A stretch of DNA of 51,030 bases from an uncultured Gammaproteobacteria bacterium (GTDB lineage: Bacteria; Patescibacteriota; Patescibacteriia; Magasanikbacterales; UBA922), in the NCBI GenBank assembly GCA_964516055.1, contig CAZEYK010000001.1, positions 1 through 51,030 on the forward strand, in the 5' to 3' direction. The notes beneath the pieces are model-generated. The model ran no database searches. It had not been told where the DNA came from and saw only the letters and a list, made by a program, of their open reading frames with translations. The position numbers were made by a program, and so were the translations under genes. Every line of letters begins with the position of its first letter. The stretch's first letter is position 1. Positions 14,638 through 40,135 of this stretch are shown piece by piece.

Positions 14638-15348
14638 TTACTGTTCCAATAGATGTTTCATTCGTGCTTCAGCCACAATCCAATCATCCTTACTATCAAT
14701 ATCTTGCGAATACACCGTATCCATTTCATATCCATACCGTCTTTTCCCCCACAAAGAACCTTCCAATAAATTATTAACCCGAAACGCATAAATGGCAGAA
14801 TTCACATAATATGTTATTGGTAAATCCTGATTTCTCTTAAAATTGGTGCATTCTGATTTTACAACAGGCATAACAATTTCATCACCAATGTTTTCTAATT
14901 GTTTCAAATAACTCATCCTACCAGGAACTCGAGAAATACCAACCAAAGAATCAATATCATCCCGTTCCTCAATAATTTGTTTTACCTCTTGAATATGAAA
15001 AGATTGTCTGCCTGGACAAGAAGGCTCTAATAAAATAATCCAATCAGCATAATACTTTCTATTTTCCCTCATCCAATTAACAGCATGAATGACGACATCT
15101 AGTGACGTCGCCATATCAGTAGCCAACTCTGCTGGTCTAATAAAAGGAACATCCACACCATGAGCTTTACCAATACTTGCAATTTCTTCATCATCAGTAG
15201 ACAAAATAAAATGATCGAAAACATTACTTTGTTTTCCAACATCAATACTCCAAACAAGCAATGGCTTACCCAAAAATTCTTTAATATTCTTCCTAGGTAA
15301 ACGCTTTGATCCACCACGGGCAGTAATAAGGCCTAATATTTTTTTCAT
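14638..15348 (-). CDS. CMP-nonulosonic acid synthetase (acylneuraminate cytidylyltransferase family), copy 1
   Basis: MKKILGLITARGGSKRLPRKNIK..GKPLL.WSI motif. It is clearly paralogous to 39404-40135, sharing FDHFILSTDD, VPFxRPAELATD and YYxNSAIYAFRV. The track ORF's 34-aa N-terminal extension overlaps the upstream gene, so ATG 15348 is preferred. Confidence 0.8.
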   Translation of the reverse strand: MKKILGLITARGGSKRLPRKNIKEFLGKPLLVWSIDVGKQSNVFDHFILSTDDEEIASIGKAHGVDVPFIRPAELATDMATSLDVVIHAVNWMRENRKYYADWIILLEPSCPGRQSFHIQEVKQIIEERDDIDSLVGISRVPGRMSYLKQLENIGDEIVMPVVKSECTNFKRNQDLPITYYVNSAIYAFRVNNLLEGSLWGKRRYGYEMDTVYSQDIDSKDDWIVAEARMKHLLEQ

Positions 15349-15355
15349 AAATAAA

Positions 15356-17323
15356 CTATATATGCAAACCACACTCATTATTACCCGTATCATGAAATCG
15401 TCCCTTTCTTTCTTCGTTAGCAACATCACTTTTTTTTGTACAAGGTTCACAACCTAAAGAAGTATATCCTTCATTATATAATGGATGATATGATAACTTA
15501 TACGTTCGTAAATATTCCCATACATCATCTTTTGTCCAAAATGCAATTGGATTATACTTTACAATATTTTCTGATTTTTCAATAATAGGAGTATATTGTC
15601 GTTGAACACTTTCATCACGACGTAATCCGGTAATCCATGCATCATACTTATCTAAAATGGGAACAATGGCAGGTTTTTTCATGGCACAACACATATACTG
15701 TCCTTCATGAATAAACGAATTTGCAAACGTACTTTTTATTTCAGAAATATCATCTTCAGTAGGACGAACCCACAAAAGATTCATATGAATTTCTTGCTCT
15801 AATTCTTTTGCAAAACGAAGTGTCTCTGGAAATTCATATCCAGTATCAATACTAACAAACAAAGCATCAGACTTAATTTGCATAACTAAATCAGCAATAA
15901 CTCGAGAATCCTTACCAAATGAACAAGCAACAAACAAATTTGGATGAACCAAAAATGCATGTTCAATAATTATTTTTGAAAGTTCTACCTTTTCTTCAAG
16001 AGTTATGTTTTTTTTAGGAACATCCAATAAAAGAGGTTCTTCTTGAATGTCAGGCAACATTTTTTTCTCTGATGGAGTAATAACCCCAGCAGCAACAGTA
16101 TCTCCTGTAACTTCATCAATTAATATAAAACTTCCCAATTTTTTATTCTTCTTGTATGAATCAAAAACAAATGGTTCATGAGTAGTAAAACGCACCTTAC
16201 CTATCTGATTAAGTTCCACTTGAGAGGCTTCTTGATATTCCCCATTCAAAACATCAATAACAGAAAAAACAGTATTAATAAAACAAAAAGTCTCCTTTGT
16301 CGTTTGTTTGATAATATATCTATTTTTCTTTACCGCAGGTTGTTTATTAAACCAAAACACCACAGCATCAATATTGTTAGAAACAATAGGTTCATTACCA
16401 ACACGCACCACAATATCCCCTCGACTGACATCAATTTGGTCAACAAAACTCATAACAGCAGCCTGTCCATTAAACGCATAACTCACATCTTCTTCTGCTA
16501 CAGAAATATGTTCAATAAAAGATTCAACACCTGATGGTAAAACTTTTATATTATCTCCAACAAGAAATACTCCTCCAGCGACAGTCCCTGCATACCCTCG
16601 AAAATCTTGATCAGGACGAACAACATATTGCACAGGAAAACGAGCATCCACCATATTACGGGAAGAGATAACAGGAACATCATGAATATATTCAAGTACT
16701 GTCTGACCAAAATACCATAACAAATTATTGCCACGAGTAGCAACCATATCACCTTTTAAAGCAGAAACCGGAATAAACTGAATATTTTTTATACCAATAT
16801 TTCTCGTAAACAATTGAACATCATCCCTTATGTTTTCAAAAACACCTTGATCATATGACACCATATCCATTTTATTCACAACAACTGCGACATGGGGAAT
16901 ATTCAATAAAGAAAGGACAAAAAAATGACGTCTTGTTTGCACAGTCATTCCTTTTCTTGCGTCAATCACAATCAATGCAACTTGAGAATGAGAAGCACCT
17001 GTAACCATATTTCTTGTATATTCTTCATGACCAGGAACATCGGCAATAATAAACGTTCTTTGATTAGAAGAAAAATATCTATATGCTACATCAATAGTAA
17101 TTTTTTGTTCTCGCTCAGCTTCAAGACCATCTGTAAAAAGTGAATAATCAAGTTCATCCTCAATGTGTTCAGTATTTTCAACAGCTTGTATTTGATCTTC
17201 ATACACATTACCCGTATCATAAAGAAGCCTTCCTATTAAAGTTGATTTTCCATCATCTACACTTCCAGCAATAACAAGAGTAAGTAATTCCATGTTTCGA
17301 TTGTATTTACGTTTATTCTCCAT
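15356..17323 (-). CDS. cysN: Fusion: sulfate adenylyltransferase subunit 1 (CysN GTPase) + Fe-S type APS/PAPS reductase (CysH family)
   Basis: CysN part (aa 1-417): GSVDDGKSTLIGRLL, DVPGHEEY, NKMD. CysH part (aa ~441-655, nt 16003-15359): PP-loop-like ACSFGKDS, the Cys pair QYMCCAMKKP, GCEPCT, and the C-terminal ECGLH motif. Confidence 0.85.
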   Translation of the reverse strand: MENKRKYNRNMELLTLVIAGSVDDGKSTLIGRLLYDTGNVYEDQIQAVENTEHIEDELDYSLFTDGLEAEREQKITIDVAYRYFSSNQRTFIIADVPGHEEYTRNMVTGASHSQVALIVIDARKGMTVQTRRHFFVLSLLNIPHVAVVVNKMDMVSYDQGVFENIRDDVQLFTRNIGIKNIQFIPVSALKGDMVATRGNNLLWYFGQTVLEYIHDVPVISSRNMVDARFPVQYVVRPDQDFRGYAGTVAGGVFLVGDNIKVLPSGVESFIEHISVAEEDVSYAFNGQAAVMSFVDQIDVSRGDIVVRVGNEPIVSNNIDAVVFWFNKQPAVKKNRYIIKQTTKETFCFINTVFSVIDVLNGEYQEASQVELNQIGKVRFTTHEPFVFDSYKKNKKLGSFILIDEVTGDTVAAGVITPSEKKMLPDIQEEPLLLDVPKKNITLEEKVELSKIIIEHAFLVHPNLFVACSFGKDSRVIADLVMQIKSDALFVSIDTGYEFPETLRFAKELEQEIHMNLLWVRPTEDDISEIKSTFANSFIHEGQYMCCAMKKPAIVPILDKYDAWITGLRRDESVQRQYTPIIEKSENIVKYNPIAFWTKDDVWEYLRTYKLSYHPLYNEGYTSLGCEPCTKKSDVANEERKGRFHDTGNNECGLHI

Positions 17324-17326
17324 ACA

Positions 17327-18235
17327 CTAAAAATAGCCTTGTTTTTTTTTATGTTCCATTGAAGTGTCAGATGTTTTATCAATTGCCCTATTACTTCTTT
17401 CGGACTGTTTTGCTTCCAAAACTTCACAAAGGATTTCCTCAACTGTTTTTGCACATGACAATACGGCACCAGTAGAAGGTGAACACCCTAAAGTTCGATA
17501 ACGAGCTTCTGCTTCTATAACTTCTTCCCCTTCTCGAGCAATCACATAATTGTCCAACGCATAAAAACTATTATTGCGCTTCACCAATTTTCTTTTCTCG
17601 GCAAAATAGAGTGAGACAACTTCAATCTTTTCTTGAAGAATATACGCCCAGATATCGGCTTCAGTCCAATTAGACAATGGAAAAACGCGCATACTCTGTC
17701 CATTCTGTAATTGAGTATTGTATAAATTCCATAACTCAGGTCTTTGTAATTTTGGATTCCAACCACTGTGTTCATTACGAACAGAAAAAATACGTTCTTT
17801 TGCACGAGATTTTTCTTCTTCACGTCTAGCGCCACCAATTGCGGCATCAAAACGATACCTTTCAAGAGCGTCAAGTAAAGGCTTCGTTTTTTTATGATAA
17901 ATATAATTATCAGTATGTGCATCATTCGGACCAAAAGACAAAGCCTCCAAAGAATCATTTTTTTCAACAATCAGTTGCACACCAATTTTATCTATATAAT
18001 AATCACGAAATTCAATCATCTCTCTAAATTTAAACCCTGTGTCAACGTGCAAAAGAGGAAAAGGAATCTTTCCTGGGAAAAAAGCCTTTTGTGCTAAACG
18101 TAACAAAACTGAAGAATCCTTACCAATAGAATAAAGAAGGACAGGACGACGAAATGTCGCAGCGACCTCACGAAAAATATAAATACTTTCTGCTTCAAGC
18201 TGCTTAAGCGATGATAATTGATATTTTTCCCCCAT
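17327..18235 (-). CDS. cysD: Sulfate adenylyltransferase subunit 2
   Basis: LKQLEAESIYIFREVAA..PVLLYSIGKDSSVLLRLA PP-loop. Length is 302 aa. It ends 3 nt before the cysN fusion start. Confidence 0.85.
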   Translation of the reverse strand: MGEKYQLSSLKQLEAESIYIFREVAATFRRPVLLYSIGKDSSVLLRLAQKAFFPGKIPFPLLHVDTGFKFREMIEFRDYYIDKIGVQLIVEKNDSLEALSFGPNDAHTDNYIYHKKTKPLLDALERYRFDAAIGGARREEEKSRAKERIFSVRNEHSGWNPKLQRPELWNLYNTQLQNGQSMRVFPLSNWTEADIWAYILQEKIEVVSLYFAEKRKLVKRNNSFYALDNYVIAREGEEVIEAEARYRTLGCSPSTGAVLSCAKTVEEILCEVLEAKQSERSNRAIDKTSDTSMEHKKKQGYF

Positions 18236-18275
18236 AAAAAAACTTTTTTAGATACTAATTTTTAAAAAATTCTTA

Positions 18276-19301
18276 CTAATATAAATCTTCAATAAGAACC
18301 AAAGTATCCTCTTCAATAAATTTTTTAACCTTTTTTCCTAATACTTTATGAACATACCCCGTAGCAAGGCCCTTACCAGGTCGCTTAAATACGATATCAC
18401 TCCTTTCAAGAACTTTACCAACGGGGATATCCTTAGCAGCCACAATACTTTGACTTGCCCATCCCCTTGCAGCAATTATATGATCAACACGATTGGAACT
18501 TGCAGGAAGAATAGATGCTTCAACATCACGAATTTGTTTAACCATTTGCTTTAAATCTTCAGGATCACATGAAACAGGACAATCAAATGATCTTTTATCT
18601 GTTTTATCAAAAGAAAGATGTTTTTCAATAAGTTTTGCACCAAGCGCAACAGCCGCAATAGGAATATGTAAACCAATAGTATGATCGGAATATCCAATAG
18701 GACAATCTAATTGATTCTTTAACTGAGTAATAGTTCCCAAACTATTTATATCAACAGGAGTAGGATAAATAGTATTGCAATGCAACGCGACAATATCAAT
18801 GAGTCCCTCAGATTCCATAATAGAAAGAGAATTATGAATTTCTTCAACCGATTTATGGAGACCAAAAGAAACAATAACAGGCTTACCCCGAGAAGCAACA
18901 TTACGCAAAAAATCATTATTAATACTTTCTCCAGAACCAATCTTAAAAAATGGAATATCTAAATCTTTATCAATAAATTCTAAATCAACTTCCGTATGAG
19001 AAGTAACAAAAAAATCGATATTACGAATTTCACAATATTCCTTCAACATTCGTAAATCATTATATGAAAGTTCTTTATACTTTAATCGACTATACCAATA
19101 AGGATCTACCTTTTTTGAAACAAGTGCTTCCGTCGTTTGTGCTTGAAACTTAATAGCATCAGCACCAGCAGCCATAGCAGCATCTACCTGCCTCTTTGCA
19201 AGTGCAATGTCACCCCAATTTGTTAAACCTCCTTCTGCAACGATGTAGACAGGATATTCTTCACCGATGAAACCGTTACCAATACGTACTTTATTATTCA
19301 T
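18276..19301 (-). CDS. NeuB-family nonulosonic acid synthase (divergent), copy 1
   Basis: YIVAEGGLTNWGDIALAKRQVDAAMAAGADAIKFQ, compared with canonical IAEIGxNHNG. Metal-ligand contexts ALHCNTIYPTP and GYSDHTIG. C-terminal SAF-like IVAAKDIPVGKVLERSDIVFKRPGKG. Confidence 0.75.
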   Translation of the reverse strand: MNNKVRIGNGFIGEEYPVYIVAEGGLTNWGDIALAKRQVDAAMAAGADAIKFQAQTTEALVSKKVDPYWYSRLKYKELSYNDLRMLKEYCEIRNIDFFVTSHTEVDLEFIDKDLDIPFFKIGSGESINNDFLRNVASRGKPVIVSFGLHKSVEEIHNSLSIMESEGLIDIVALHCNTIYPTPVDINSLGTITQLKNQLDCPIGYSDHTIGLHIPIAAVALGAKLIEKHLSFDKTDKRSFDCPVSCDPEDLKQMVKQIRDVEASILPASSNRVDHIIAARGWASQSIVAAKDIPVGKVLERSDIVFKRPGKGLATGYVHKVLGKKVKKFIEEDTLVLIEDLY

Positions 19302-19334
19302 AAAATAATAATTTATTTAAGAATTAAAAAATAC

Positions 19335-20492
19335 CTATACTGATTGTTCCCACTTCACTTTTGGCATAATAGTATCTTTATCAATATTATCCTTATATTC
19401 AATAATCTTTTTCAACATACTGTCCACCAAAACGTCAGACAATTTTTGTGGTTTCAAGCCAAGATCAATGAATTTCGTATGAACAGGATTAAAATAATGT
19501 GTTTCCATCTCCTTTCGAGGATTTTCAATATTCATTATTTTCACATCAAGACCAAATTTCTTCCCTGATTCTTGAACAAGCATTGCAAGCTGATTAATTG
19601 AAAATGTTTCAGTAAACTGATTATAAATTTTAAATTCACCAGGCTCAGAAGGGTTAAGGACAGCAAGTTCAACACACTGCAATGTATCAAGAATATTCAA
19701 AAATGCACGTTTTTGTTCCCCTTTTCCATAAGGAGTAATAGGAAGACCTGCAATAGCTTGCACACAAAAACGATTTAATGCCGTACCAAAAATTTCATCA
19801 TAATGAAAACTGGTACATAATTTTTCATGAAATAGTGTTTCTTCCGTTTCAATACCATAAACAACACCTTGGTTTAAATCAGTTGCCCTAAGATTCCAGG
19901 TATTAACAGCAAAATAAATATTATTACTATCATGTACTTTTGAAAGATGATAAAAAGAACCTGGTCTTTTTGGAAATAACACACGATCTTTTCTTCCTTT
20001 ATGTTCTACATCAAGATATCCTTCTTCAATATCAATATTTGGTGTTCCATATTCTCCCATGGTACCAAGTTTAACCAAATGTGCATGTGGACAATGTTTT
20101 TTTATAGCAAATAAAACATTTAAATTTCCAATAACATTATTTGTTTGAGTAATAATAGCCTGTTCATTTCCACTCATGGAAAATGGCGCGGAAGGTTGTT
20201 CTCCATAATGGACAATGGCATCCGGTCTAAAATCCTCAAAAACTTTATGAACAAAACGAGTATTCACCAAATCGCCAACATACATTTTTATATCTTTCCC
20301 TGTCACGTCTTTCCACACACGAATACGCTCATGAAGCGTAGCAACTTCAGGTAATGGTTTAATTCCCATTTCCATTTCCCACTTTCTTTTATTGAAGTTA
20401 TCTAACACAGCAACCTCATACCCTTTTCGAGAAAAGTACATTGCAGTAGGCCAACCAAGGTACCCATCTCCTCCCAAAATCAAAATCTTCAT
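19335..20492 (-). CDS. sqdB: UDP-sulfoquinovose synthase
   Basis: Long near-identical blocks match the SQD1/SqdB sequence as I recall it. They are ILGGDGYLGW, LVKLGTMGEYGTPNIDIEEGY, SFYHLSKVHDS (Tyr/His/Lys catalytic context), ATDLNQGVVYG and FGTALNRFCVQA. Confidence 0.88.
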   Translation of the reverse strand: MKILILGGDGYLGWPTAMYFSRKGYEVAVLDNFNKRKWEMEMGIKPLPEVATLHERIRVWKDVTGKDIKMYVGDLVNTRFVHKVFEDFRPDAIVHYGEQPSAPFSMSGNEQAIITQTNNVIGNLNVLFAIKKHCPHAHLVKLGTMGEYGTPNIDIEEGYLDVEHKGRKDRVLFPKRPGSFYHLSKVHDSNNIYFAVNTWNLRATDLNQGVVYGIETEETLFHEKLCTSFHYDEIFGTALNRFCVQAIAGLPITPYGKGEQKRAFLNILDTLQCVELAVLNPSEPGEFKIYNQFTETFSINQLAMLVQESGKKFGLDVKIMNIENPRKEMETHYFNPVHTKFIDLGLKPQKLSDVLVDSMLKKIIEYKDNIDKDTIMPKVKWEQSV

Positions 20493-21433
20493 ACAATATT
20501 TGTTAATTTAGAATATTCTTCTTTAAAATAAATAAGTGTTTTATTAATACCATCTTCAAGTGTCACTTCCGGTTTCCAATTTAATTCTTTTTGTGTAACG
20601 CTGTTATCAAGGCAACTTCTCAAAATTTCACCAAGCAATGCCTCGCCATTATGTACGTGTACTGAAACATCAAGTTTTTGAGCAATAACCTGAAATAATT
20701 TATTTACACTACACTCCTTTCCAGTACTAACATTGTAAGTATTCAATGTATTTCCATTTTGTTCACCAGCAAGAACATTCACTCTTGCAATATCTTCCAC
20801 ATAAATAAAATCCCGAGTTTGCTCTCCACTACCATTGATCACAGGGGTAACACCTTCAAGTAAATTTTTAATAAATACAGCAACTACACCACCTTCTCCC
20901 TTCCTATCTTGCCTCGGACCATAAACATTGCTATATCTCAAGATGGTAACCGGCATGCCATAAACAGTATTATAATAATATAAATACTGTTCACCCGCCA
21001 ACTTATCAATACCATATGGAGAAATTGGTTTTGTCGAATGATCAAGTGTCGTTGGAAGCTGATCAGTATTCCCATATAATGCTCCTCCTGTAGAAGAAAA
21101 GACAAAACGCGAAATATTATATTTTCGTGCATATTCCAACAAATTCACCATTCCATGAACATTATTATAGATATCATTAAGTGGATCATTCACAGATTTT
21201 CTTACATTTGTAGCAGCAGCGAGATGACAAACAACATCAATCCTTTCATGAAAAAAAATATCCGATAAATCATCCGCAATATTCCGTCTATATATTGGAA
21301 CTCCTTTGGGAATATTATAATCTTTCCCAGTGCTAAAATCATCCAATACGATAGGATAATGACCGCTAACAATAAATTGTTCAACAACATGTGAGCCAAT
21401 AAAACCAGCACCACCAGTAACTAAAATACGCAT
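20489..21433 (-). CDS. NAD-dependent sugar-nucleotide 4-epimerase (GalE-like)
   Basis: MRILVTGGAGFIGSHV and the YxxxK motif in SPYGIDKLAGEQY. ATGA overlap with the sqdB start. Confidence 0.75.
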   Translation of the reverse strand: MRILVTGGAGFIGSHVVEQFIVSGHYPIVLDDFSTGKDYNIPKGVPIYRRNIADDLSDIFFHERIDVVCHLAAATNVRKSVNDPLNDIYNNVHGMVNLLEYARKYNISRFVFSSTGGALYGNTDQLPTTLDHSTKPISPYGIDKLAGEQYLYYYNTVYGMPVTILRYSNVYGPRQDRKGEGGVVAVFIKNLLEGVTPVINGSGEQTRDFIYVEDIARVNVLAGEQNGNTLNTYNVSTGKECSVNKLFQVIAQKLDVSVHVHNGEALLGEILRSCLDNSVTQKELNWKPEVTLEDGINKTLIYFKEEYSKLTNIV

Positions 21434-21523: not shown

Positions 21524-22660
21524 TTAATACGTAATTTTTTTCATCAATAGGTCATCATCAACATCAATATTCCGAATAATTTCATAAATTTTTTTCCCTG
21601 CTGTACCATCACCAAATATATAATTATTAACAATTTTATTACGAAATTCATAGCTTGTTGCTTTATCAATAGCCTCAAGAATATCTTCTTTAACAGGATT
21701 ACAAGAAATAACGTTCACATCCCGGACCCTTCCTTCTTGACGTTTTCCAACAGTAACACTCGGCAAACCAAAATAAGGAGTTTCAATAAGACCTGAACTT
21801 GAATTACCAATAAAAAATGACGCGCCATCCATCAACCCCCAAAAATCTAAAGCATCTATATTTTTATGTACAGAAAAATACGGAACAGTACGAAACTCAT
21901 CAAGTGCACGTAAAGTTCCTTGATAACCTTGGTCACTACAGGGGTAAATCACGAGCGTCCGTATCCCATAATCCCTAAGAGCACCATATACAGATAAAGC
22001 TTCATCATATGACGCACATTCTTTCAAGGTCATAGGATGTTGAATACAAATGGCATAAGGCTCTTCTTCACCAATAGCATACATACGACGAACATCCCGA
22101 TTATTAGTAAATCTTCCTTGCATAACAAAATCAATATATGTAGCACCAACAGTATGTACCCGATGAGATTCTTCACCGAGTTTCAAAATACGATCAGCAC
22201 TATCCGCAGATGAAGGAAAATGTAGATGAGAAAGTTTAGTAATAGCATGAATTCTATTTCCATCCCTATTTCCAGCGACATCACCACCAAGAATATGTGC
22301 AACTGGAATATTTAACTCCATAGCCGCAATAGTAGCTGAAAGAACCTCTCCCCTATCACCCAAAGTAATCAATATATCTGGACGTGCTTCACTAAGCACA
22401 TCCACCATACGAGAAACAAATAGACCCAACGCCCGTCCACGCTCAACAGCCGAATCATCTTTCTGACCAAATACAACCTTATATGAAATAGGAAAAAATC
22501 GTTCAACTTCTTTTGCAGTATAGCCAAATATATTTGACAGATGCATATCTGTCACAATTAATTGCAATTCCATCAAAGGATCATTCTGGATCATCTCCAT
22601 TAACCCAATCATGGCCCCAAACCCGCCTCGTTTACCACTCAATACAGCGACCTTTTTCAT
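21524..22660 (-). CDS. Hydrolysing UDP-N-acetylglucosamine 2-epimerase (NeuC family), copy 1
   Basis: MKKVAVLSGKRGGFG, LGDRGEVLSATIAAMELNIPVAHILGGDV, HAITKLSHLHFPS. Confidence 0.8.
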   Translation of the reverse strand: MKKVAVLSGKRGGFGAMIGLMEMIQNDPLMELQLIVTDMHLSNIFGYTAKEVERFFPISYKVVFGQKDDSAVERGRALGLFVSRMVDVLSEARPDILITLGDRGEVLSATIAAMELNIPVAHILGGDVAGNRDGNRIHAITKLSHLHFPSSADSADRILKLGEESHRVHTVGATYIDFVMQGRFTNNRDVRRMYAIGEEEPYAICIQHPMTLKECASYDEALSVYGALRDYGIRTLVIYPCSDQGYQGTLRALDEFRTVPYFSVHKNIDALDFWGLMDGASFFIGNSSSGLIETPYFGLPSVTVGKRQEGRVRDVNVISCNPVKEDILEAIDKATSYEFRNKIVNNYIFGDGTAGKKIYEIIRNIDVDDDLLMKKITY

Positions 22661-32109: not shown

Positions 32110-33645
32110 CTATGTATTTTTTACCTTTTTTAGCTCCTTTAAAAATCCCTCAGTAATATTCATCACTGAATCAAAATGAGACAAAGATGAAAAACTATCA
32201 AAAAAATTAGTCTTATTTGCCTTAATAACAACTGATTGAAGAGCAATATAATAATTCAATACCTTCTGTTGATTAACAGTATAGCCATTGATAATAGTTT
32301 CAATTGCCTTTGTGCAAGAATCTGGGCTATCCACTCTAAAGATTCCTTCACAATACATATACCATGGATAGCCAAAAAGTAAAACAGGTCTTTGTCGAAC
32401 AATAGCTTCTAAACCAGCTGTGCCAGAAGCGGTGGCAACTGCTTGACAATTTTTAATTAAATCATATGTTGATATATTAGGTGATATAAGCTTAACATTT
32501 TTTATAGCAGCTAATTCTTTATAATATCCATTATAACGAAAAAGATGTGATCTATGATCATGAGAATCCCACTGTATTGAATACTCTTTTACATATATAA
32601 TCCAATCTTCAGGAAGTGCTGCGGCCACTGTCTTGACCATAAATATCATATCTACATAATACATTGCCAACGGACTAGTGGTGCATTCAGGTTGATAATG
32701 CAATGGAATATAAATAAACTTTTTATTCATATTAGGATAAGATTCCAATGCTAAATATTCTTTCTTATACGCATCTTTTAATCTTTTAAATTTTTTTAAA
32801 TAAAAATAATTTTTATAATTTTTACCTGATTTAAAAGACATTGATTCACCACTATAAAAAAATTGATACTTAATATAATAATAGGTAGTTTTAAAAAATA
32901 CCATTTTAAAAATATTTTTTATAATTTTATTGATTTTTGGAAATAATCGTAATTTTTTTTTCATTTTTAAATCCCTATCTTTTTTGTAAAATGGAGTGGC
33001 ATCATAGTATACATCTGACAATTTTAAAAAATAATCTTTTTCTGCAACAGGAATCTCATCAAGCGTATGTACTTCATTTTCAATAAGATGATAGTAATCT
33101 AAAAGAGACTCCGATGCCTTTTTATAATCTTGTACAACAATCAATCTATCTTGAACATTAGCCACTTCTAACATAATAGTTGGAATATTGTATAGTTTGG
33201 CCAATGAATACAAAACAAAATTATAAGCGACATGAGGAACATCACTAAAAATAATTACATCTGGTTTCATCAATGTCAAAATACCATTCCAATATGTCAC
33301 ATATTTATAATAAATATGTTTCTTTTCAAGAACAGACATATACGAAAAATCGAGTCTCGTCATCATAGTTAATACAATGGATTCACATTCTAATAATTGA
33401 GAAAGTAATTTGCTGCTCGGTGGAAAAAATTCCAAAGTATCTACTCCATTTGCAGGAATAGCCCTTATCGCCTCTAACTGATTATGAAAAATAGTTTGAG
33501 GAAATTTTTGTGTATCCTTGATAACAAGATCTCTATATATATCTTTTGCAGCTACCCAATAAACAATAGAAAAACCTTGCTTTTGCAAATTACATGCAAC
33601 ATCATACAGCACTGACGAAGAAAAATCACACAAAAAAACATTCAT
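32110..33645 (-). CDS. Putative capsule-synthesis-like (KpsS/LipB-like) glycosyltransferase; uncertain
   Basis: 511 aa from ATG 33645, which lies 1 nt after the upstream stop. The C-terminal half, IYIPLHYQPECTT..VATASGTAGLEAIVRQRPVLLFGYPWY, resembles the Capsule_synth-type fold. The track ORF's N-terminal 88 aa overlap the ABC gene. Confidence 0.45.
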   Translation of the reverse strand: MNVFLCDFSSSVLYDVACNLQKQGFSIVYWVAAKDIYRDLVIKDTQKFPQTIFHNQLEAIRAIPANGVDTLEFFPPSSKLLSQLLECESIVLTMMTRLDFSYMSVLEKKHIYYKYVTYWNGILTLMKPDVIIFSDVPHVAYNFVLYSLAKLYNIPTIMLEVANVQDRLIVVQDYKKASESLLDYYHLIENEVHTLDEIPVAEKDYFLKLSDVYYDATPFYKKDRDLKMKKKLRLFPKINKIIKNIFKMVFFKTTYYYIKYQFFYSGESMSFKSGKNYKNYFYLKKFKRLKDAYKKEYLALESYPNMNKKFIYIPLHYQPECTTSPLAMYYVDMIFMVKTVAAALPEDWIIYVKEYSIQWDSHDHRSHLFRYNGYYKELAAIKNVKLISPNISTYDLIKNCQAVATASGTAGLEAIVRQRPVLLFGYPWYMYCEGIFRVDSPDSCTKAIETIINGYTVNQQKVLNYYIALQSVVIKANKTNFFDSFSSLSHFDSVMNITEGFLKELKKVKNT

Positions 33646-33646
33646 A

Positions 33647-35434
33647 TTATAATCCCAAATTAGAAACTTTATAAAAATACGAAGATGTATCAGATAATAA
33701 TATGTCTGGAGAACCAGACTCAACCACGCCGCCATCATTAAGAACAAGAAGCGTATTACAATGATGAATTGTTGATAAACGATGAGCAATAATAATAATA
33801 GTAATTTTTCCACGAATATTTTCAATAACCTGCTGAATTTTTTTTTCAGACTCTTTATCAAGAGAACTAGTGGCTTCATCAAAAACAAGCAATTTTGGTT
33901 TACGAGCAAGAATCCGTGCTATAACAATGCGCTGTCTTTGTCCGTTAGATAACATAAGCCCCCTATCTCCTATCAACGTATCAAAACCGTTTGCACTTGA
34001 CTCAATAAAATCATAAATATTAGCCATCTTTGCAGCTTCAATAGCATCTTCTCTACTAATAGATTCATCATAATACTTAATATTATTTAAAAAAGAATCA
34101 TTAATCAAAAAATAATCTTGAGAAACATACCCAATATTTTTTCTCCAAGAATGTAAAGAAATACCTGATAATGGCAAGCCATCAATAAAAATTGTCCCTT
34201 CCTGTGGCTCATGCAAACGTAACAATACATCAACAAATGTTGTTTTCCCTGCTCCGGAAGGCCCTACAATTCCCAACATTTCACCACAACGTAACGTAAA
34301 ATTTAAAGAATTAAGTATTTTTTTATCAGAATAGGCATAACTAAAAGATACATTATTAAACACAATATCTTTCTTAAAAGAAAAAGTATCATTACCCATT
34401 TTTTTCTCCTGATTTTTTTTTGATTCCATTAAATAATTATTAACATATTCTAAATGTGGAAACGTTTCATTAATCCCCTGCCATGTAGTCTGCAATTGTT
34501 GAATATAGACAAAAATTCTTTGAATAAGATATACCAAGGCAATCATAGCAGAAAAAGAAAAATAAGACGTTTTCAATGTAAAAATAAACAAACCAGAAAT
34601 AAATAATAAACTAAATGGCTGCATCATAATAGTAACAACACTATTAAGCAAAAACCGAGAAATTTTATATGATTTCAAATCAGCAAAATGCAAAGATGCA
34701 ATGTTATAGACATTTTTTTCAACAGCCATTGTTTTTAACGTTTTTAACCCAACAATCTGTTCATTTATAAGATGAGCAATTTTTTTATTAAGATTTACAG
34801 TCTTTCTTGAAATATCCCTAGTTTTAATAATAACTGGACGTATACAAGTAAAAAATATTGCCCCAACTACCATGGTAATAAAAGTCATTATAAATGATAT
34901 GTTAATAGCAACCAAAAGATAAACAAACAAACCAGTAATAACCATTACAAAACTAGTAATCTGCTGTAACAATAATCCACTTCGCTGAATATCATGCATA
35001 ATAACATTCTCCAAATAACCGATCTTTTGTCTAATAAGGTATGCCCATGTTGAATGCAACGTTCTTTCAAGCAGTAATAACCGTTTAGTTTCTTCATATT
35101 CAGCAGTAATTTTTATTTTTATATAATTAGACCAAAATAAAAAAACGGCTTTCAATAAAAATAAAATAATAATCAAACCTAACATGTAATATACTGTCAA
35201 AGGTAATCTAAAAAAACTAAAAAATGTAACAATATTCCGTGAAATAACATCATCGCCCATATTTCCATTATTGGTAATCAAAGAAAAAAGTGGAATAATA
35301 GCATTAACACCTATCCCTTCCAATAAACCAGAGATAATACCAAAAATAAATAAATAGGCAATACTCCGTCTATATCCAGAAAACGCTAAATAAGCGTGAT
35401 CTATAATTAAAGAAATTTTATTTTGTTTTTTCAT
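33647..35434 (-). CDS. ABC exporter, fused permease/ATPase (MsbA/PglK-like)
   Basis: Six-TM N-terminal half. Walker A GPSGAGKTT, signature LSNGQRQR, Walker B LLVFDEATSSLD. Confidence 0.85.
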   Translation of the reverse strand: MKKQNKISLIIDHAYLAFSGYRRSIAYLFIFGIISGLLEGIGVNAIIPLFSLITNNGNMGDDVISRNIVTFFSFFRLPLTVYYMLGLIIILFLLKAVFLFWSNYIKIKITAEYEETKRLLLLERTLHSTWAYLIRQKIGYLENVIMHDIQRSGLLLQQITSFVMVITGLFVYLLVAINISFIMTFITMVVGAIFFTCIRPVIIKTRDISRKTVNLNKKIAHLINEQIVGLKTLKTMAVEKNVYNIASLHFADLKSYKISRFLLNSVVTIMMQPFSLLFISGLFIFTLKTSYFSFSAMIALVYLIQRIFVYIQQLQTTWQGINETFPHLEYVNNYLMESKKNQEKKMGNDTFSFKKDIVFNNVSFSYAYSDKKILNSLNFTLRCGEMLGIVGPSGAGKTTFVDVLLRLHEPQEGTIFIDGLPLSGISLHSWRKNIGYVSQDYFLINDSFLNNIKYYDESISREDAIEAAKMANIYDFIESSANGFDTLIGDRGLMLSNGQRQRIVIARILARKPKLLVFDEATSSLDKESEKKIQQVIENIRGKITIIIIAHRLSTIHHCNTLLVLNDGGVVESGSPDILLSDTSSYFYKVSNLGL

Positions 35435-35437: not shown

Positions 35438-36817
35438 TTATTTTTTAGCTAGAAGTTTTTCAATACTGTTCACGATCCTTTCACAAGATTTTCCGTCATC
35501 TCGATAACAAACCTTATTAACAAGATTTTTCCTTTGAGCTTGATCAATAGAAGGATCACCAAAGTATTTATTTATACTAGAAAGCAATTCCTTATTATTA
35601 AAGACAAGATCAACAGCCCCAGTATCAAGAACCCATTGATAATGATCTTTCTTATAAAATAATTCACTCATATCCTGACCATGCTTATACAAAATACCAA
35701 AAGCAATATTAATAATAGGTAGATCAAAACAAGCGGCATCCAAAGTAAGAGTAGATGTAGTAGTAATCAATACATCAGAATGATGAAGCAAATTAGCAAA
35801 CATCTCCATATCCTTTCGAACTGGATCCCAATTATCCAAGAAAAAATTAGAAAGTGTAAAAAATGGATCTAATACAACATGTGGAGTATTCTCAAATCTG
35901 ACAAATCTATTATTATAAACATCAGAATAATGTGGACGAATAATAATTGTTGTATCCTCGTCATATACTCCTTCATCTAGCCATTTTACCAAAATATCAA
36001 CAATAGCATCATCATACGGCGCCCATACTCCTTCCGAACCAAAAAATATCAGTTTCCTCTTTGGATCAACTCCAATAAGTTTACAATATTCTTCCCGACT
36101 CAAAAGTGGTGCATCAACATAATAATCAAATTGTGGAAATCCTACAGACACAACTGAAGACTTCGAAAAACATTGCACACGAGGCACTTGTTCTTCCATC
36201 AACTCATTTTGAACCACTAATAAATCTGGAACAAATTTATAAAACATTTTTGCTATATTATCCCACCCCTTAGGCATACTAACAGTTTTTATACCACGTC
36301 GTCTTGCCTCTTTCATAAATAAAATGTCAACAGTAGAAACAATAGAAGAAGAAAAAACAAGAGACGGATTATACTTATCAAAATATTTTTCGTATGTATT
36401 ATTCCTAAAAACATGTTGTTCAACAAAACGAGCAATATATTTGAAAAAAGTAACATAACTAAAAGGTTTATACATCCATTTTTCTAGATACGCACGCCAA
36501 TTTGCCCGTTTCTTATTTTTCACATTCCCCATAAGAGAAAAAGTCCATGTCGTTTGTGTATATACAAGAAATGCAACAATTGGAGAAAAAATCTTACGGT
36601 AAATCCTTCCCAGTTTAACATTTTCAACTTCTTCAATAATTACCTGTTCTGATTCAAACTCATCTCTAAATGATTGTGGCAAATTAATTTTACGAATACG
36701 AGGAATGAAAATAACAATTTTGTAACCTCGTAATACAAGCAAATCCAAAATACCAGACCGCAAAATGTTACGAACCAAGAACCCCCGTGAAATGACAATA
36801 AACAAAGTCTCTTTCAT
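35438..36817 (-). CDS. Uncharacterised GT-B-like protein, paralog B (candidate glycosyl- or phospho-sugar transferase)
   Basis: Shares motifs with 40116-41522: ISRG..RNIL, LVFSxSI, GIKTxxMPKxWDN, GxPQFDYY, IFFGSEG, IRPH, HSDVxIxTxSTLTLDxA, CYxxDGKxxER. Confidence 0.5.
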   Translation of the reverse strand: MKETLFIVISRGFLVRNILRSGILDLLVLRGYKIVIFIPRIRKINLPQSFRDEFESEQVIIEEVENVKLGRIYRKIFSPIVAFLVYTQTTWTFSLMGNVKNKKRANWRAYLEKWMYKPFSYVTFFKYIARFVEQHVFRNNTYEKYFDKYNPSLVFSSSIVSTVDILFMKEARRRGIKTVSMPKGWDNIAKMFYKFVPDLLVVQNELMEEQVPRVQCFSKSSVVSVGFPQFDYYVDAPLLSREEYCKLIGVDPKRKLIFFGSEGVWAPYDDAIVDILVKWLDEGVYDEDTTIIIRPHYSDVYNNRFVRFENTPHVVLDPFFTLSNFFLDNWDPVRKDMEMFANLLHHSDVLITTTSTLTLDAACFDLPIINIAFGILYKHGQDMSELFYKKDHYQWVLDTGAVDLVFNNKELLSSINKYFGDPSIDQAQRKNLVNKVCYRDDGKSCERIVNSIEKLLAKK

Positions 36818-37179: not shown

Positions 37180-37181
37180 AT

Positions 37182-38339
37182 TTAATACGTTAATTTTTTA
37201 ATTAACAACCCTTCATCTAATTTTACTTCTTTAAGAACGTCTACAATACGCTTGGCCGATTTTCCATCACCATATGGATTTATACACTGTTGTACTTGTT
37301 TCACAAAAACAGGAGACAATGCCATATTAATAGCATCGATAATCTCTTGTTGCTTATAATCCGTATTAATCACATTCTTTCCTTGCAAACGCCCCAGCTG
37401 CCTATTTCCAATATTCACAACTGGCAAATGAAACGAAGGCGCTTCAAGAATACCACTTGAAGAATTTCCCACCATCACATCTGCAACGCTCATCAATCCA
37501 GCATAATCTTCTCTCTTCACATTTTTATACATCTTCATGTTTGATTTTCTATACTCAAGAATCTTTCTTCTCACAATATTACCGCCAGCGTCAGAGTTAC
37601 TCGAAATAATTACCACTTGTCCATCAAATGAAGAAACAGCCTGCATAACTTCATCCATATGAGATTCCATACTACTTACCTCTTCAGTCACAGGATGAAA
37701 AACAAACAGCATAATCGGTTTTTCAGCATCAAGATCAAACTGCTTATAAATATCTTCTGCTGAAGTAATATCACCAAAAACAAAATCATCTAATTGAGGA
37801 GCACCAACCATATGGACACGATACTCTTCTTCTCCCATTTTTCGTACACGTTCAGCAGCATCATCGTTTGATGCAAAGTGCAAATGTGCAAATTTTGTAA
37901 TAGCATGCCGAGTTGACCCATCAATATTCCCAGATAATTCTCCTGCTTGGATATGAGCCGTAGGAATATACATATGTGCGCCAACAATAGCACCAACAAG
38001 TTGTTCCCCTCTATCCCCGGCGAGCAAAATCATGTCGGCACCCATTTGTTCAAGAATTTCAGGAAGTTGCAATTGAAATACCGCAAGAGATTTGGCCATA
38101 GATACATGATTGTATCCATCAAACGTATTATTAATACGAGAAAAAATTTTAATATTATCTCTTTCAAGCTCCGTAATACTCGATCCAAAAGAATCAAGTA
38201 CATGCATATTTGTCGCAATTACTCCATAATCGAGATCTTCATGTTGTTCTATTTCACGAATAATTGGACGAATATACCCATATTCTCCTCGCGACCCAGT
38301 AATAATCGCAATCATTCTTTTTTTATTCTTTTTGTCCAT
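37182..38339 (-). CDS. neuC: Hydrolysing UDP-N-acetylglucosamine 2-epimerase, copy 3
   Basis: MIAIITGSRGEYGY, LAGDRGEQLVGAIVGAHMYIPTAHIQAGELSGNIDGSTRHAITKFAHLHFAS. Confidence 0.8.
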   Translation of the reverse strand: MDKKNKKRMIAIITGSRGEYGYIRPIIREIEQHEDLDYGVIATNMHVLDSFGSSITELERDNIKIFSRINNTFDGYNHVSMAKSLAVFQLQLPEILEQMGADMILLAGDRGEQLVGAIVGAHMYIPTAHIQAGELSGNIDGSTRHAITKFAHLHFASNDDAAERVRKMGEEEYRVHMVGAPQLDDFVFGDITSAEDIYKQFDLDAEKPIMLFVFHPVTEEVSSMESHMDEVMQAVSSFDGQVVIISSNSDAGGNIVRRKILEYRKSNMKMYKNVKREDYAGLMSVADVMVGNSSSGILEAPSFHLPVVNIGNRQLGRLQGKNVINTDYKQQEIIDAINMALSPVFVKQVQQCINPYGDGKSAKRIVDVLKEVKLDEGLLIKKLTY

Positions 38340-38340
38340 A

Positions 38341-39399
38341 TTAAACAGTTATATATTCCCATTGTAAAATAGTATCTTTAGGGAAATCTTTAGTCACTCG
38401 CTTCCCAATCAACTTATCGGCATAACGTATATCCAAAAATTTAGCAGGAATACCAGAACCAGGACGTTTTGGAATAAGCATATCAAGGGTAAGCATTGTT
38501 CCTGCAGCGATATCTTCGGCAGCGACTACACTGTGATATGCCCAATCTCTAACTACTTGTTCATCTTTAGTAATATTTTTTTCACTACCCAGACTTACAT
38601 CAATTTTTCTTACTCCTTCAGCTAAATCTGCAAGCATGTCTGGTTCAAGAGCAATTTTATGATCAGGCCCATCTTGATCTCGAGATAACGTAAAATGCTT
38701 TTCAATAACTTTAGCCCCCATTGGAATAGACGCATAGGCCGTATAATTATCAACAGTATGATCAGATTGCCCAGCCCACACACCAAATTCTTCCTGCATC
38801 TTTCGAATCCGACCAAGATTAATATGTGAGTAATCCCCTGGTGGATATTCAGACGTACAATTAGTAAGAATCAAATTATCTTTGGCCCCTTCTTCTTCAT
38901 AGACAGCAACAGTCTCAACAATTTCTTCCCATTTGCTCATACCTGTAGAAACAATAACTGGTTTCCCTGTTTCCGCAGAGATTTTCGCCAACTTTCGTTG
39001 CATAGGAAGATTGGTAAGCTCTCCTGAACCAGTCTTAAATGCCTTCACGCCAAGTTCTTGTAAGACATCCACAGCAGCAGGACAAAATGGTGTACATAAA
39101 TATTCGACACCAACTTCTTCACAATAATCCATCACTTCTTTATGCATCTCTCGCGTAAACAAATTTCTTTTCAAAATATCATATAGTGGCCCATCCCACA
39201 TGTTTATAGAACCAGGAACCATTTCAATATCAGGAAGATGTAATTGAAACTTTGCAACATGAACCCCCGCTTTTTTAATCTCGTCAATCATCTTTTTTGC
39301 TGTTTCCACACTCCCATTATGAGAATCGGCAATTTCAGCGATAATCAATGTTGGTGAATCCTCAGAAATAGTATATTGTCCAAAAGTAATTGATTTCAT
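38341..39399 (-). CDS. neuB: NeuB-family nonulosonic (sialic) acid synthase, copy 3
   Basis: LIIAEIADSHNGSVETAKKMIDEIKKAGVHVAKFQ, QSDHT, and SAF-like VVAAEDIAAGTMLTLDMLIPKRPGSG. Confidence 0.8.
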   Translation of the reverse strand: MKSITFGQYTISEDSPTLIIAEIADSHNGSVETAKKMIDEIKKAGVHVAKFQLHLPDIEMVPGSINMWDGPLYDILKRNLFTREMHKEVMDYCEEVGVEYLCTPFCPAAVDVLQELGVKAFKTGSGELTNLPMQRKLAKISAETGKPVIVSTGMSKWEEIVETVAVYEEEGAKDNLILTNCTSEYPPGDYSHINLGRIRKMQEEFGVWAGQSDHTVDNYTAYASIPMGAKVIEKHFTLSRDQDGPDHKIALEPDMLADLAEGVRKIDVSLGSEKNITKDEQVVRDWAYHSVVAAEDIAAGTMLTLDMLIPKRPGSGIPAKFLDIRYADKLIGKRVTKDFPKDTILQWEYITV

Positions 39400-39403
39400 A
39401 ATA

Positions 39404-40135
39404 TTATGTTAAAAGTTTTTTCATTTTTATAGTGGCAACATCCCAATCATCTGGAGTATCAATATCAAAAGCATATTTTTCATCCATCAAATATCCCTTC
39501 GTTAAATCACCCCATAACGAAGGATCCTCTGTATAAAAATTGGCAACACGAAATGCATAAATAGCCGAATTAATATAATAAGTAGGTGATATATTTTGAT
39601 TTCGATGAATAAAATTTTTTACCTTTGTTCCATCAATAGAAGCAACTAAATCATCTTCCGTAAAAACAAGTGATTTATATGGACTAAAATGAGCAGGGAT
39701 TTTCGATATACCCACAATTGAATCAATATGATTTCCATATTCCTTAATTAATTGAACAACATCTATAACATGCGATGCTTGTCTTCCTGGAGCAGTTGGT
39801 TCAAACAAAACTACCCAATCAGCATTATATTGTTTATTATCACGCATCCACTCAACAGCATGTTTCACAACTTCAAATGATCCAGCAGTATCGGTAGCCA
39901 ACTCAGCGGGTCTCATAAATGGCACATCAATACAATATTCCTTTCCCACAGCAGCAATATCATCGTCATCTGTACTCAAAATAAAGTGATCAAAACAATT
40001 TGCATTTTTACCAACCTCAATACTCCACGCTAACAATGGTTTCCCATGAAATGGTTTAATATTCTTTCCTGGCAATCTTTTTGAATCACCACGCGCAGTA
40101 ATTATTCCTAAAATATTAGGATTTAATTTTTTCAT
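39404..40135 (-). CDS. neuA: CMP-nonulosonic acid synthetase, copy 2
   Basis: ILGIITARGDSKRLPGKNIKPFHGKPLLAWSI. Close paralog of 14638-15348. Confidence 0.8.
   Translation of the reverse strand: MKKLNPNILGIITARGDSKRLPGKNIKPFHGKPLLAWSIEVGKNANCFDHFILSTDDDDIAAVGKEYCIDVPFMRPAELATDTAGSFEVVKHAVEWMRDNKQYNADWVVLFEPTAPGRQASHVIDVVQLIKEYGNHIDSIVGISKIPAHFSPYKSLVFTEDDLVASIDGTKVKNFIHRNQNISPTYYINSAIYAFRVANFYTEDPSLWGDLTKGYLMDEKYAFDIDTPDDWDVATIKMKKLLT

Follow-up and report, generated by a model that had tools for sequence, protein, structure and literature searches.

What does a bacterium with a reduced genome make from three sets of nonulosonic acid (NulO) genes placed in a single locus, and what is the role of a gene for a sulfo-sugar synthase inside one of these sets? 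The locus lies in a window of 51,030 bp (contig CAZEYK010000001.1 of assembly GCA_964516055.1, positions 1 to 51,030; "window" means this whole stretch) from a bacterium of the candidate phyla radiation (CPR), Candidatus Magasanikbacteria, from Crystal Geyser groundwater; one of its synthases, NeuB1, is 100% identical to an NCBI protein of Candidatus Magasanikbacteria bacterium CG10_big_fil. The small, streamlined genome assumed in the preliminary description of this DNA fits such a small-genome CPR bacterium. All window open reading frames from 14638 to about 50985 are on the minus strand, and the 25 co-directional genes between 14638 and 41522, with intergenic gaps of at most 90 bp, would form the core of a large surface-glycan island. 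This island is predicted to contain three independent branches, each ending in a CMP-activated nine-carbon sugar. Taken jointly, it is probable that the three branches are distinct and functional and that the first belongs to a module linked to a homolog of the UDP-sulfoquinovose synthase SQD1. Direct observation covers the gene identities, the catalytic residues kept in every copy, how far the paralogs have diverged, and the conserved linkage between the SQD1-like gene and NeuB.

Genes were named by their Pfam domains and by NCBIfam/TIGRFAM models with curated cutoffs (Table 1). Domain and model matches confirm the three NeuB-like synthases, three NeuC-like hydrolysing 2-epimerases and three cytidylyltransferases (CTs) first described for this locus, all on the minus strand. 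Amino-acid identity in pairwise comparisons is 37% for NeuB1/NeuB2, 30% for NeuB1/NeuB3 and 38% for NeuB2/NeuB3, and 32-35% for the NeuC pairs, with almost no nucleotide similarity between the paralogs of either family. Pairwise identities and hidden Markov model cutoffs were also used to compare the synthases with N. meningitidis NeuB and C. jejuni PseI, taken from PDB alignments, and with vertebrate NANS; the NeuB copies are equally distant from each other and from N. meningitidis NeuB or C. jejuni PseI (31-36%). Regarding the CTs, CT1 and CT3 are indeed close paralogs (57% amino-acid identity and 71% nucleotide identity over 415 nt), and the third, CT2, is of the SpsF type and barely alignable with the other two. 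The low pairwise identities indicate that the three copies are old paralogs rather than recent duplicates.

The three NeuB copies match PF03102 (209-310 bits, E values from 1e-61 to 1e-92) and the SAF domain PF08666. All of them keep the phosphoenolpyruvate (PEP) and sugar residues E25, K53, Q55, T110, K129, S132, E134, S154, Y186, S213, E234 and D247 (N. meningitidis numbering, used for NeuB throughout), the metal ligands H215 and H236, and R314 of the antifreeze-protein-like (AFP) domain; the list of active-site residues was drawn partly from PMC6795526. The sole variant among these positions is E134D in NeuB2, and vertebrate NANS likewise has Asp there. The NeuC copies score 327, 388 and 395 bits, for NeuC1, NeuC2 and NeuC3, respectively, on the hydrolysing-epimerase model TIGR03568 (cutoff 235.9), against 69-103 bits on the non-hydrolysing wecB model, and retain the catalytic acids D103, E/D128 and D135 (LegG numbering), the invariant His and Arg residues and the acid of the GG(D/E) motif. 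All three CTs match PF02348 (CTP_transf_3), and the N-terminal loop (A/T)ARxxSxRLPxKN is visible in their translations. All reading frames of these genes are intact. Other genomes hold orthologs of each copy, 54-76% identical and in the same setting, which means that each is under purifying selection.

Independent assemblies of several samples (JGI, ENA and Logan) show the same gene order in the NeuB1-NeuB2 region, which argues against assembly collapse or expansion. An origin of the copies as assembly artefacts, as recent duplicates with the same product or as pseudo-enzymes is therefore hardly credible: besides the recurring arrangement, the sets are too divergent, their catalytic, metal and PEP residues are kept in every copy, and orthologs of each one occur elsewhere in the same context. 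Three features would fit redundancy or decay, namely the fairly close relationship of CT1 and CT3, the deviation of NeuC2 at six near-invariant family positions, and the scores of NeuB1 and NeuB3 below equivalog cutoffs. These readings were rejected because of the divergence, the independent assemblies and the conserved residues. The comparison of paralogs proposed at the outset thus found copies that are far from identical and that have not lost catalytic residues, in agreement with the original view of three separate and apparently functional sets.

The models also give some indication of enzyme class. On the N-acetylneuraminate/legionaminate synthase model TIGR03569 (cutoff 399.65), NeuB2 passes with 433.8 bits, and NeuB1 (268.8 bits) and NeuB3 (286.5 bits) miss, so that only NeuB2 can be filed under this equivalog. 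All three are under the cutoff of the PseI model TIGR03586 (340.25), with 202, 299 and 229 bits for NeuB1, NeuB2 and NeuB3, respectively, and Pfam and NCBIfam scans of the locus found no gene of the PseG or PseH type. The PseF model TIGR03584 (cutoff 205.7) gives 150 bits for CT1, 162 bits for CT3 and no match for CT2.

Of the three sets, set 1 is the one of interest. It had been described as interleaved with a sulfoquinovose cassette and as having a divergent NeuB. The cassette and the divergence are both real; the association, however, is more than interleaving, since the clade of NeuB1 is tied to the SQD1-like gene across phyla. In order to follow this clade, GTDB species representatives were scanned with a NeuB1-clade alignment, which returned 34 clade loci with 41-62% identity (from CPR lineages, Gaiellales, two metagenome-assembled genomes (MAGs) of Gammaproteobacteria and one Bdellovibrionales MAG) and, as an outgroup, 46 loci with an ordinary NeuB (about 33% identity), chiefly from Rhodobacteraceae. 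An SQD1-like gene (47-73% identity by tblastn) lies within a few kb of NeuB in 26 of the 34 clade loci, which come from CPR, Gaiellales and Gammaproteobacteria MAGs. In each of the other eight, the contig breaks off no more than 3.8 kb upstream of NeuB. Where a clade locus offers 4.6 kb or more of sequence upstream, the SQD1-like gene is thus always present (26 of 26), against none of the 46 ordinary NeuB loci. In almost all loci, the SQD1/NeuB pair is joined by a CT and by a NeuC of the module type, 39-59% identical to NeuC1; a domain of adenosine 5'-phosphosulfate (APS) reductase stands beside it in 11 loci, and CysD/CysN in two. The gene order varies by lineage and the linkage persists, with TagB-like transferases and ABC exporters recurring in the module loci. 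Branch 1 (14638-22660) is a copy of this conserved module, which consists of an SQD1-like gene, a dedicated NeuC clade, a dedicated NeuB clade and a CT, with APS reductase, CysDN and a GalE-like protein as optional members.

An obligatory linkage in both directions was considered and rejected. Three reverse look-ups were made from SQD1-like genes (loci are denoted by L numbers), and only L092 had NeuB, NeuC and CT adjacent; L093 has NeuC and CT and no NeuB within 8 kb. In five loci (L012, L013, L037, L042 and L043), the NeuB1-clade gene has as its immediate upstream neighbour, on the other strand, a gene of family F10, whose B12-binding/radical-SAM-like product is about 600-900 aa long.

The synthase of this module has a recognisable signature. 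Its motif E-G-G-L-T-N-W-G aligns to E25-I-G-I-N-H-E-G of the N. meningitidis enzyme. The preliminary description had noticed NW in place of NH; the divergence is genuine and clade-wide, but the register was off by one, as T-N-W replaces N-H-(N/E), and the clade character reads x-E-(G/A)-G-(L/V)-T-N-(W/Y/F)-G. The invariant changes of the clade are N29T, H30N, E31W/Y, F112H, N184T, P244R, G245S and F288W, at positions lining the pocket. Position 244 is an invariant Arg in the NeuB1 clade, an invariant Lys in vertebrate NANS, and Pro, Glu or Asp in enzymes acting on neutral sugars. The module NeuCs also form a group of their own, with invariant K10, G13, D38, R74, Y175, C241 and Y246, where C241 replaces an otherwise invariant Asn; the closest solved structure to NeuC1 is A. 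baumannii LegG (5XVS).

The CT of set 1 seems to have a different history. The CT1 translation shows the ARGGSKRLPRKN and DID motifs, and the protein is 54-59% identical to the CTs of NeuB3-type cassettes elsewhere but only 30-36% to those of other SQD1 modules. By this measure, a CT of the set-3 type seems to have been recruited in this lineage in place of the one that first belonged to the module. This would fit a core common to NulO-1 and NulO-3, with differences at the distal end.

The SQD1-like protein is 55% identical over its full length to Arabidopsis SQD1 (PDB 1QRR) and shares the catalytic T145, Y182 and K186, as well as M146, E148, Y149 and H183, with SQD1 and with Agl3 of Sulfolobus acidocaldarius (PMC4388408); all seven are kept in 22 of 22 NeuB-linked homologs. 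It scores 463 bits on the UDP-sulfoquinovose synthase model NF041015, below the cutoff of 575. It differs from SQD1 and Agl3 by Pro in place of Arg101 (GEQ-R-SAP), a change present in the window protein and in 22/22 NeuB-linked homologs, and by the subfamily-wide substitutions S179G, N228T-R229S-L230F-D231H and D267N. Its context is a NulO module, in contrast to the sulfolipid (SqdX/SQD2) or N-glycan (Agl) context of the known enzymes. Arg101 is common to SQD1 and Agl3, and the R101A mutant of Agl3 is inactive (PMC4388408). Among the 120 best database matches, position 101 is Pro in 119 and Thr in one. The change from Arg101 to Pro was considered as a unique mark of the NeuB-linked homologs and rejected, because diverse P-type sequences stand beside R-type ones among representatives at 50% identity.

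The sulfur supply is encoded next to it. Fusion partners of CysN are usually APS kinases (CysC). No APS kinase domain is present in the CysN fusion of this locus (15356-17323), which ends in an APS reductase domain of the Fe-S type with the motifs CC (545), CEPC (625) and ECGLH (650). CysD, CysN and the reductase domain, which together cover assimilatory sulfate activation and APS reduction, all score above curated cutoffs. The two genes are apparently a complete, private sulfate-to-sulfite system dedicated to the SQD1-like enzyme. In the module loci elsewhere, APS reductase has a gene of its own (about 225-230 aa), which adjoins the SQD1-like gene. Because the SQD1-like gene adjoins this dedicated source of sulfite, its product very probably catalyses the addition of sulfite to a UDP-4-keto-5,6-ene sugar. 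The stop of the GalE-like gene overlaps the start of the SQD1-like gene by 4 bp, and GalE-like orthologs of 47-51% identity adjoin the SQD1-like gene in L014, L016 and L019-L021.

From these parts, the following pathway can be proposed for branch 1. CysD and the CysN-APS reductase fusion would convert sulfate into sulfite, which the SQD1-like enzyme would add to C6 of a UDP-hexose (UDP-GlcNAc or UDP-Glc). NeuC1 would release the free 6-deoxy-6-sulfo sugar, NeuB1 would condense it with PEP into a 9-deoxy-9-sulfo nonulosonic acid, and CT1 would activate this acid with CMP. That set 1 makes a C9-sulfonated nonulosonic acid is a reading that we favour at somewhat short of even odds. The fuller proposal is a little more tentative still, namely that NeuC1, the GalE-like protein, the SQD1-like protein, NeuB1, CysD, CysN-APS reductase and CT1 constitute a complete pathway to a NulO with a C-S sulfonate at C9 (9-deoxy-9-sulfo-Neu5Ac/Kdn-like), and that the module is conserved and horizontally shared among CPR, Gaiellales and some Gammaproteobacteria. 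Coupling at the pathway level is supported by the fact that SQD1-like, NeuB1 and NeuC1 each form their own clade with invariant substitutions at otherwise conserved positions. In addition, Arg244 of the NeuB1 clade parallels the Lys of NANS, whose substrate, ManNAc-6-phosphate, is anionic at C6.

Several points weigh against this sulfonated product. The SQD1-like protein may simply make UDP-sulfoquinovose from UDP-glucose, given its identity to the plant enzyme and its complete catalytic residues, and a NeuC-type elimination on a 2-hydroxy sugar would be chemically awkward. P-type SQD1 homologs are common, diverse and not confined to NulO contexts. In L091, a P101-type homolog (8001-9197) that is 64% identical to that of the window follows a NusG/RfaH-like gene in a capsule locus of the Gram-negative Wza/Wzc/Wzx/Wzy type, and genes for NeuB, NeuC and CT are all absent within 8 kb of it; this speaks against Arg101-to-Pro as a signature of NulO synthesis and implies that the product of the P101 subfamily can serve directly as a glycosyl donor for ordinary polysaccharides. 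Regarding a structural role of Arg101, the Agl3 paper (PMC4388408) gives only the inactivity of R101A, and the dehydratase review gives no role. As a universal mark of SQD1-linked NeuBs, Arg244 is weakened by a sister clade (L092 type, P0116/P0120) that lacks it and shares His112. The outgroup control covers a narrow phylogenetic range. NeuB1, NeuB3, the CTs, the dehydratase and the aminotransferase are below NCBIfam equivalog cutoffs, so that exact products and stereochemistry cannot be named from sequence, and we infer from genes alone every substrate and product of the three branches, above all the sulfonated one.

These points lead to an alternative that we consider a serious one, if itself not quite an even bet, in which the locus makes two sugars for one glycan: UDP-sulfoquinovose would be used by an ordinary glycosyltransferase (GT), and NeuC1, NeuB1 and CT1 would make a separate Neu5Ac- or Kdn-like sugar. 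The tight linkage would then reflect a conserved glycan containing both residues, moved between lineages as one block of genes. GTs able to use UDP-sulfoquinovose are indeed present in the window (GT4 at 47127-48260 and GT2 at 48587-49399), L092 has two GT4 genes immediately after its SQD1-like gene, no aminosugar-specific feature can be demonstrated in the SQD1-like protein, and sulfoquinovose is established as a stand-alone residue in Sulfolobus N-glycans (PMC4388408). The SQD1 homolog of L091, free of any NulO genes, points the same way. Two separate sugars, however, leave unexplained why the SQD1-like gene is accompanied in all 26 informative loci, across three phyla, by one particular NeuB clade and one particular NeuC clade and by no other, and why residues conserved by Neu5Ac, Pse and Leg synthases alike have changed (F112H and P244R in NeuB; K10, R74 and N241C in NeuC). 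Most CPR modules, moreover, have no conserved classical GT beside the SQD1-like gene, only the TagB-like transferases being conserved. A sulfonated NulO also has to be set against a phosphorylated one. The NCBI protein name of NeuB1 is N-acylneuraminate-9-phosphate synthase, and animal NANS resembles the enzyme proposed here in its C6-anionic hexosamine substrate and its cationic residue at position 244, so that NeuB1 could be imagined to condense a 6-phosphorylated hexosamine with PEP, the sulfur genes being unrelated to its substrate. This is very unlikely: neither a sugar kinase nor a NulO-9-phosphate phosphatase is conserved in the module, the sugar released by a hydrolysing NeuC is free and carries no phosphate, the linkage to SQD1 would have no explanation, and NeuB1 is no closer to NANS than to bacterial enzymes. 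The anion proposed for NeuB1 is a C-linked sulfonate instead of a phosphate ester. Vertebrate NANS sequences (P0392, P0393 and others) have invariant Lys at 244 and 288 and Val at the position of Arg314; for 288 and 314 the comparison is uncertain, as the alignment of the AFP domain is possibly shifted.

No paper linking a sulfoquinovose synthase with NeuB or nonulosonic acids was found in the literature searched, and a large phylogeny of NulO synthases mentions neither CPR nor sulfur (PMC8208679). Within that literature, the SQD1-linked NeuB/NeuC module is apparently undescribed, and it represents, at the least, a previously unreported form of NulO biosynthesis.

The second set lies, as first described, within a bacillosamine/legionaminic-type block, and all six gene types of the UDP-di-N-acetylbacillosamine (UDP-diNAcBac) route are present (22673-27426 and 31341-32105). 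A retaining 4,6-dehydratase of the PglF/SpsM type would act first, on UDP-GlcNAc; the aminotransferase and then the acetyltransferase would give a UDP-diNAc-bacillosamine-type sugar, from which NeuC2 would remove UDP with epimerisation at C2; NeuB2 would condense the product with PEP, and the SpsF-type CT would activate it. The dehydratase carries the signature SDK...MGVSK, with Met in place of the Tyr of short-chain dehydrogenases/reductases. Its SDK...MxxxK matches the PglF/WbpM-type signature, for which the PglF entry is TDKxnMx3K (PMC8987622), and SpsM of B. subtilis relies on the corresponding M146 (PMC7439481). The cutoffs of the LegB, LegC, PseB and PseC equivalogs are all missed, and the set is for this reason called Leg-type without a stereochemistry. 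The B. subtilis sps genes form a CMP-legionaminic acid pathway shown genetically (SpsM/C/D/G/E/F), with SpsF as the CT and SpsB as a TagB-domain candidate transferase (PMC7439481). Set 2 has the same series of enzymes as sps and the Campylobacter and Acinetobacter Leg pathways, with TagB-like candidates nearby. It differs from sps in the below-cutoff scores of its dehydratase and aminotransferase on the PseB, PseC and LegC models, in NeuC2, and in four extra genes between NeuB2 and the CT. NeuC2 keeps D103, D128 and D135, but is the single outlier among 30 NeuC homologs at R104L, E106F, K144Q, H147S, E165G and R315C (LegG numbering), and as judged from these residues it may use a different nucleotide or sugar. 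The four extra genes (the GFO-family oxidoreductase, methyltransferase, C-N hydrolase and class-III aminotransferase) suggest a modified derivative.

Set 3 is the compact CT-NeuB-NeuC block of the preliminary description, and is a copy of a mobile and conserved CT-NeuB-NeuC-CBS cassette (36826-40135). When metagenomes were scanned with NeuB3, 10 loci (L094-L103) had a NeuB 54-76% identical to it, and L018 holds another ortholog in the same cassette. In the 10 loci, a NeuC3 ortholog (60-68%) comes after NeuB, and then a small CBS-domain protein (37-46%), which is present in all of them; a CT3 ortholog (54-55%) precedes NeuB in six (L095-L097 and L100-L102). The CBS-domain protein may be a nucleotide-sensing regulator of this branch. 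As no dehydratase or aminotransferase genes for deoxy or amino tailoring are present in the cassette, a Neu5Ac-like product is taken as the default. The G+C content of the NeuC3-NeuB3-CBS block is 0.37-0.38, against 0.29-0.32 in the flanking transferase and ABC genes, which is consistent with a separate acquisition of the cassette.

Three putative transferases could serve the three CMP-activated donors: the two TagB-like proteins and the KpsS/KpsC-like protein, the last a weak assignment with no NCBIfam match. The family of TagB-like transferase a is present in 20 NeuB1-clade loci. Transferase b is 33% identical to it and had no match in a search of PDB sequences. Their nearest functional analogs are the TagB-like GT-B proteins encoded beside NulO genes in T. 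forsythia (Tanf_01245 / TFUB4_00887 / BFO_1060), of which the BFO_1060 family (NF046086) is a transferase of Pse/Leg derivatives with a TagB-like domain (PMC5420450). The window proteins reach only 57 bits against a cutoff of 200, so the likeness is a functional analogy, with membership of the family not established.

Table 1. Predicted genes of the NulO locus and the adjoining high-GC island, with the matches used to name them (bit scores are given against model cutoffs).
Feature	Coordinates	Strand	Evidence or remark
Ser/Thr protein kinase	9727-11409	+	In high-GC island
TPR-like protein	11406-12422	+	In high-GC island
Cys-rich MopE/FGE-sulfatase-domain protein	12467-14515	+	In high-GC island
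CT1, CMP-nonulosonate synthetase (NeuA-like) of set 1	14638..15348	-	PF02348 E = 2e-20; best NCBIfam PseF 150 bits < 205.7
CysN (sulfate adenylyltransferase large subunit) fused to APS reductase domain	15356..17323	-	TIGR02034 482 bits > 336; C-terminal NF002537 190 bits > 154
CysD, sulfate adenylyltransferase small subunit	17327..18235	-	TIGR02039 427 bits > 396.6
NeuB1, putative nonulosonate synthase of SQD1-linked clade	18276..19301	-	PF03102 + SAF; TIGR03569 269 bits < 399.65
SQD1-like NAD-dependent sulfo-sugar synthase (P101 type)	19335..20492	-	E = 7e-154, 55% identity to A. thaliana SQD1
GalE-like NDP-sugar epimerase/reductase	20489..21433	-	PF01370 E = 2e-59; galE TIGR01179 182 bits < 262
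NeuC1, hydrolysing 2-epimerase of SQD1-linked module	21524..22660	-	TIGR03568 327 bits > 235.9
PglF/SpsM-type 4,6-dehydratase (short)	22673..23668	-	PF02719 E = 3e-100; PseB TIGR03589 336 bits < 408
DegT/PglE/LegC-type sugar aminotransferase	23658..24785	-	PF01041 E = 5e-116; PseC 311 and LegC-family 288 bits < cutoffs
Hexapeptide-repeat N-acetyltransferase (PglD/NeuD-like)	24839..25237	-	PF00132; NeuD/PglB/VioB TIGR03570 64 bits < cutoff
NeuC2, LegG-like hydrolysing 2-epimerase	25245..26363	-	TIGR03568 388 bits > 235.9
NeuB2, LegI/NeuB-type nonulosonate synthase	26368..27426	-	TIGR03569 434 bits > 399.65; catalytic residues kept
GFO/IDH/MocA oxidoreductase, tailoring or precursor enzyme near set 2	27440..28435	-	PF01408, PF22725
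S-adenosylmethionine-dependent methyltransferase	28450..29169	-	PF13847; 239-aa start at MQNKK as in L003 gene call
Carbon-nitrogen hydrolase (amidase/nitrilase superfamily)	29171..29965	-	PF00795 E = 2e-31
Class-III aminotransferase, PRK06209 family (annotated as glutamate-1-semialdehyde (GSA) aminomutase-like)	30009..31325	-	NF004856 592 bits > 486
CT2, SpsF-type cytidylyltransferase, candidate CMP-Leg synthetase for set 2	31341..32105	-	PF02348 E = 1.5e-14
KpsS/KpsC-like (Capsule_synth) putative CMP-sugar-dependent transferase	32110..33645	-	PF05159 E = 2e-9, residues 371-430 only; weak assignment
MsbA/PglK/HepA-like ABC exporter	33647..35434	-	PF00005, PF00664; HepA-family 323, MsbA 291, PglK 231 bits, all < cutoffs
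TagB-like transferase a, candidate NulO transferase	35438..36817	-	PF04464 E = 4e-11; NF046086 57 bits < 200
Stand-alone CBS-domain protein, 117 aa	36826..37179	-	PF00571; KpsF/GutQ C-terminal region 54 bits
NeuC3, hydrolysing 2-epimerase of set 3	37182..38339	-	TIGR03568 395 bits > 235.9; family-invariant residues kept
NeuB3, putative nonulosonate synthase of set 3	38341..39399	-	PF03102 + SAF; TIGR03569 286 bits < cutoff; catalytic residues kept
CT3, CMP-nonulosonate synthetase of set 3	39404..40135	-	PF02348 E = 7e-22; PseF 162 bits < 205.7
TagB-like transferase b, candidate NulO transferase	40116..41522	-	PF04464 E = 2e-11; NF046086 57 bits < 200

The region 41723-47103, also on the minus strand, resembles a branch for the synthesis of a nucleotide-activated cyclitol or polyol phosphate. 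It encodes an NTP-transferase, a Zn-dependent alcohol dehydrogenase, a CDP-alcohol phosphatidyltransferase with weak similarity to inositol-phosphate synthases, and a 929-aa fusion of an NTP-transferase, a 3-dehydroquinate-synthase-like sugar-phosphate cyclase (aroB 284 bits, below the cutoff of 305) and an APH-type kinase. We know of no characterised three-domain fusion of this kind. The wider island includes an initiating phosphoglycosyl transferase of the Bac_transf family (3513-4988, plus strand), two UDP-sugar dehydrogenases, and GT4 and GT2 enzymes. Directly adjoining the glycan island is a plus-strand segment of 4.8 kb (9727-14515) with about 57-61% G+C within a genome of 30-40%. It has the appearance of DNA gained recently by horizontal transfer from a high-GC donor, and it is not a chimera, since its junctions recur in independent assemblies (L001 and L004).

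The presence of three sets had been called unusual for such a genome, which is only partly right, as two or three NeuB/NeuC sets within 10-17 kb are frequent in the loci of CPR relatives (among them L015, L016, L018, L027 and L031, and likewise L094, L096-L099 and L101). C. jejuni reportedly has three neuB genes, for Neu5Ac, Leg and Pse synthases, and other bacteria with multiple NulOs are known. C. jejuni resembles the present bacterium in having, in one genome, three divergent synthases of the NeuB family with three different predicted products. The present locus differs in that the three sets form one co-directional 27-kb array in a CPR host with a reduced genome, that no set is Pse-like, and that one set is tied to a sulfo-sugar enzyme. 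Multiple NulO sets in one genome or locus are thus already known, and what makes this locus interesting is the conserved tie between SQD1 and NulO genes.

Nonulosonic acids are of key importance at cell surfaces, where they play a part in adhesion, in the mimicry of hosts, and in phage and immune recognition. To our knowledge, the bacterial NulOs described so far (Neu, Leg, Pse, Aci, Kdn and relatives) are distinguished from one another by stereochemistry and by N- or O-acyl groups alone, and SQD1 is the only enzymatic route to a C-S sulfo-sugar. If branch 1 does make a sulfonated product, it would be a chemically new member, and a new class, of this family, and a doubly anionic sugar resembling a sulfo-sialic acid would be a common and overlooked surface decoration of uncultivated bacteria; a function would also be provided for the large uncharacterised P101 branch of the SQD1 family. 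The more conservative reading still defines a conserved SQD1 and NulO glycan module, the CT-NeuB-NeuC-CBS cassette, and TagB-like candidate NulO transferases in CPR. These bacteria have a minimal metabolism and live attached to hosts. About 35 kb spent on three NulO branches and a private sulfate-to-sulfite system would be a heavy surface investment for such cells, and the products would be candidate molecules for recognition between episymbiont and host.

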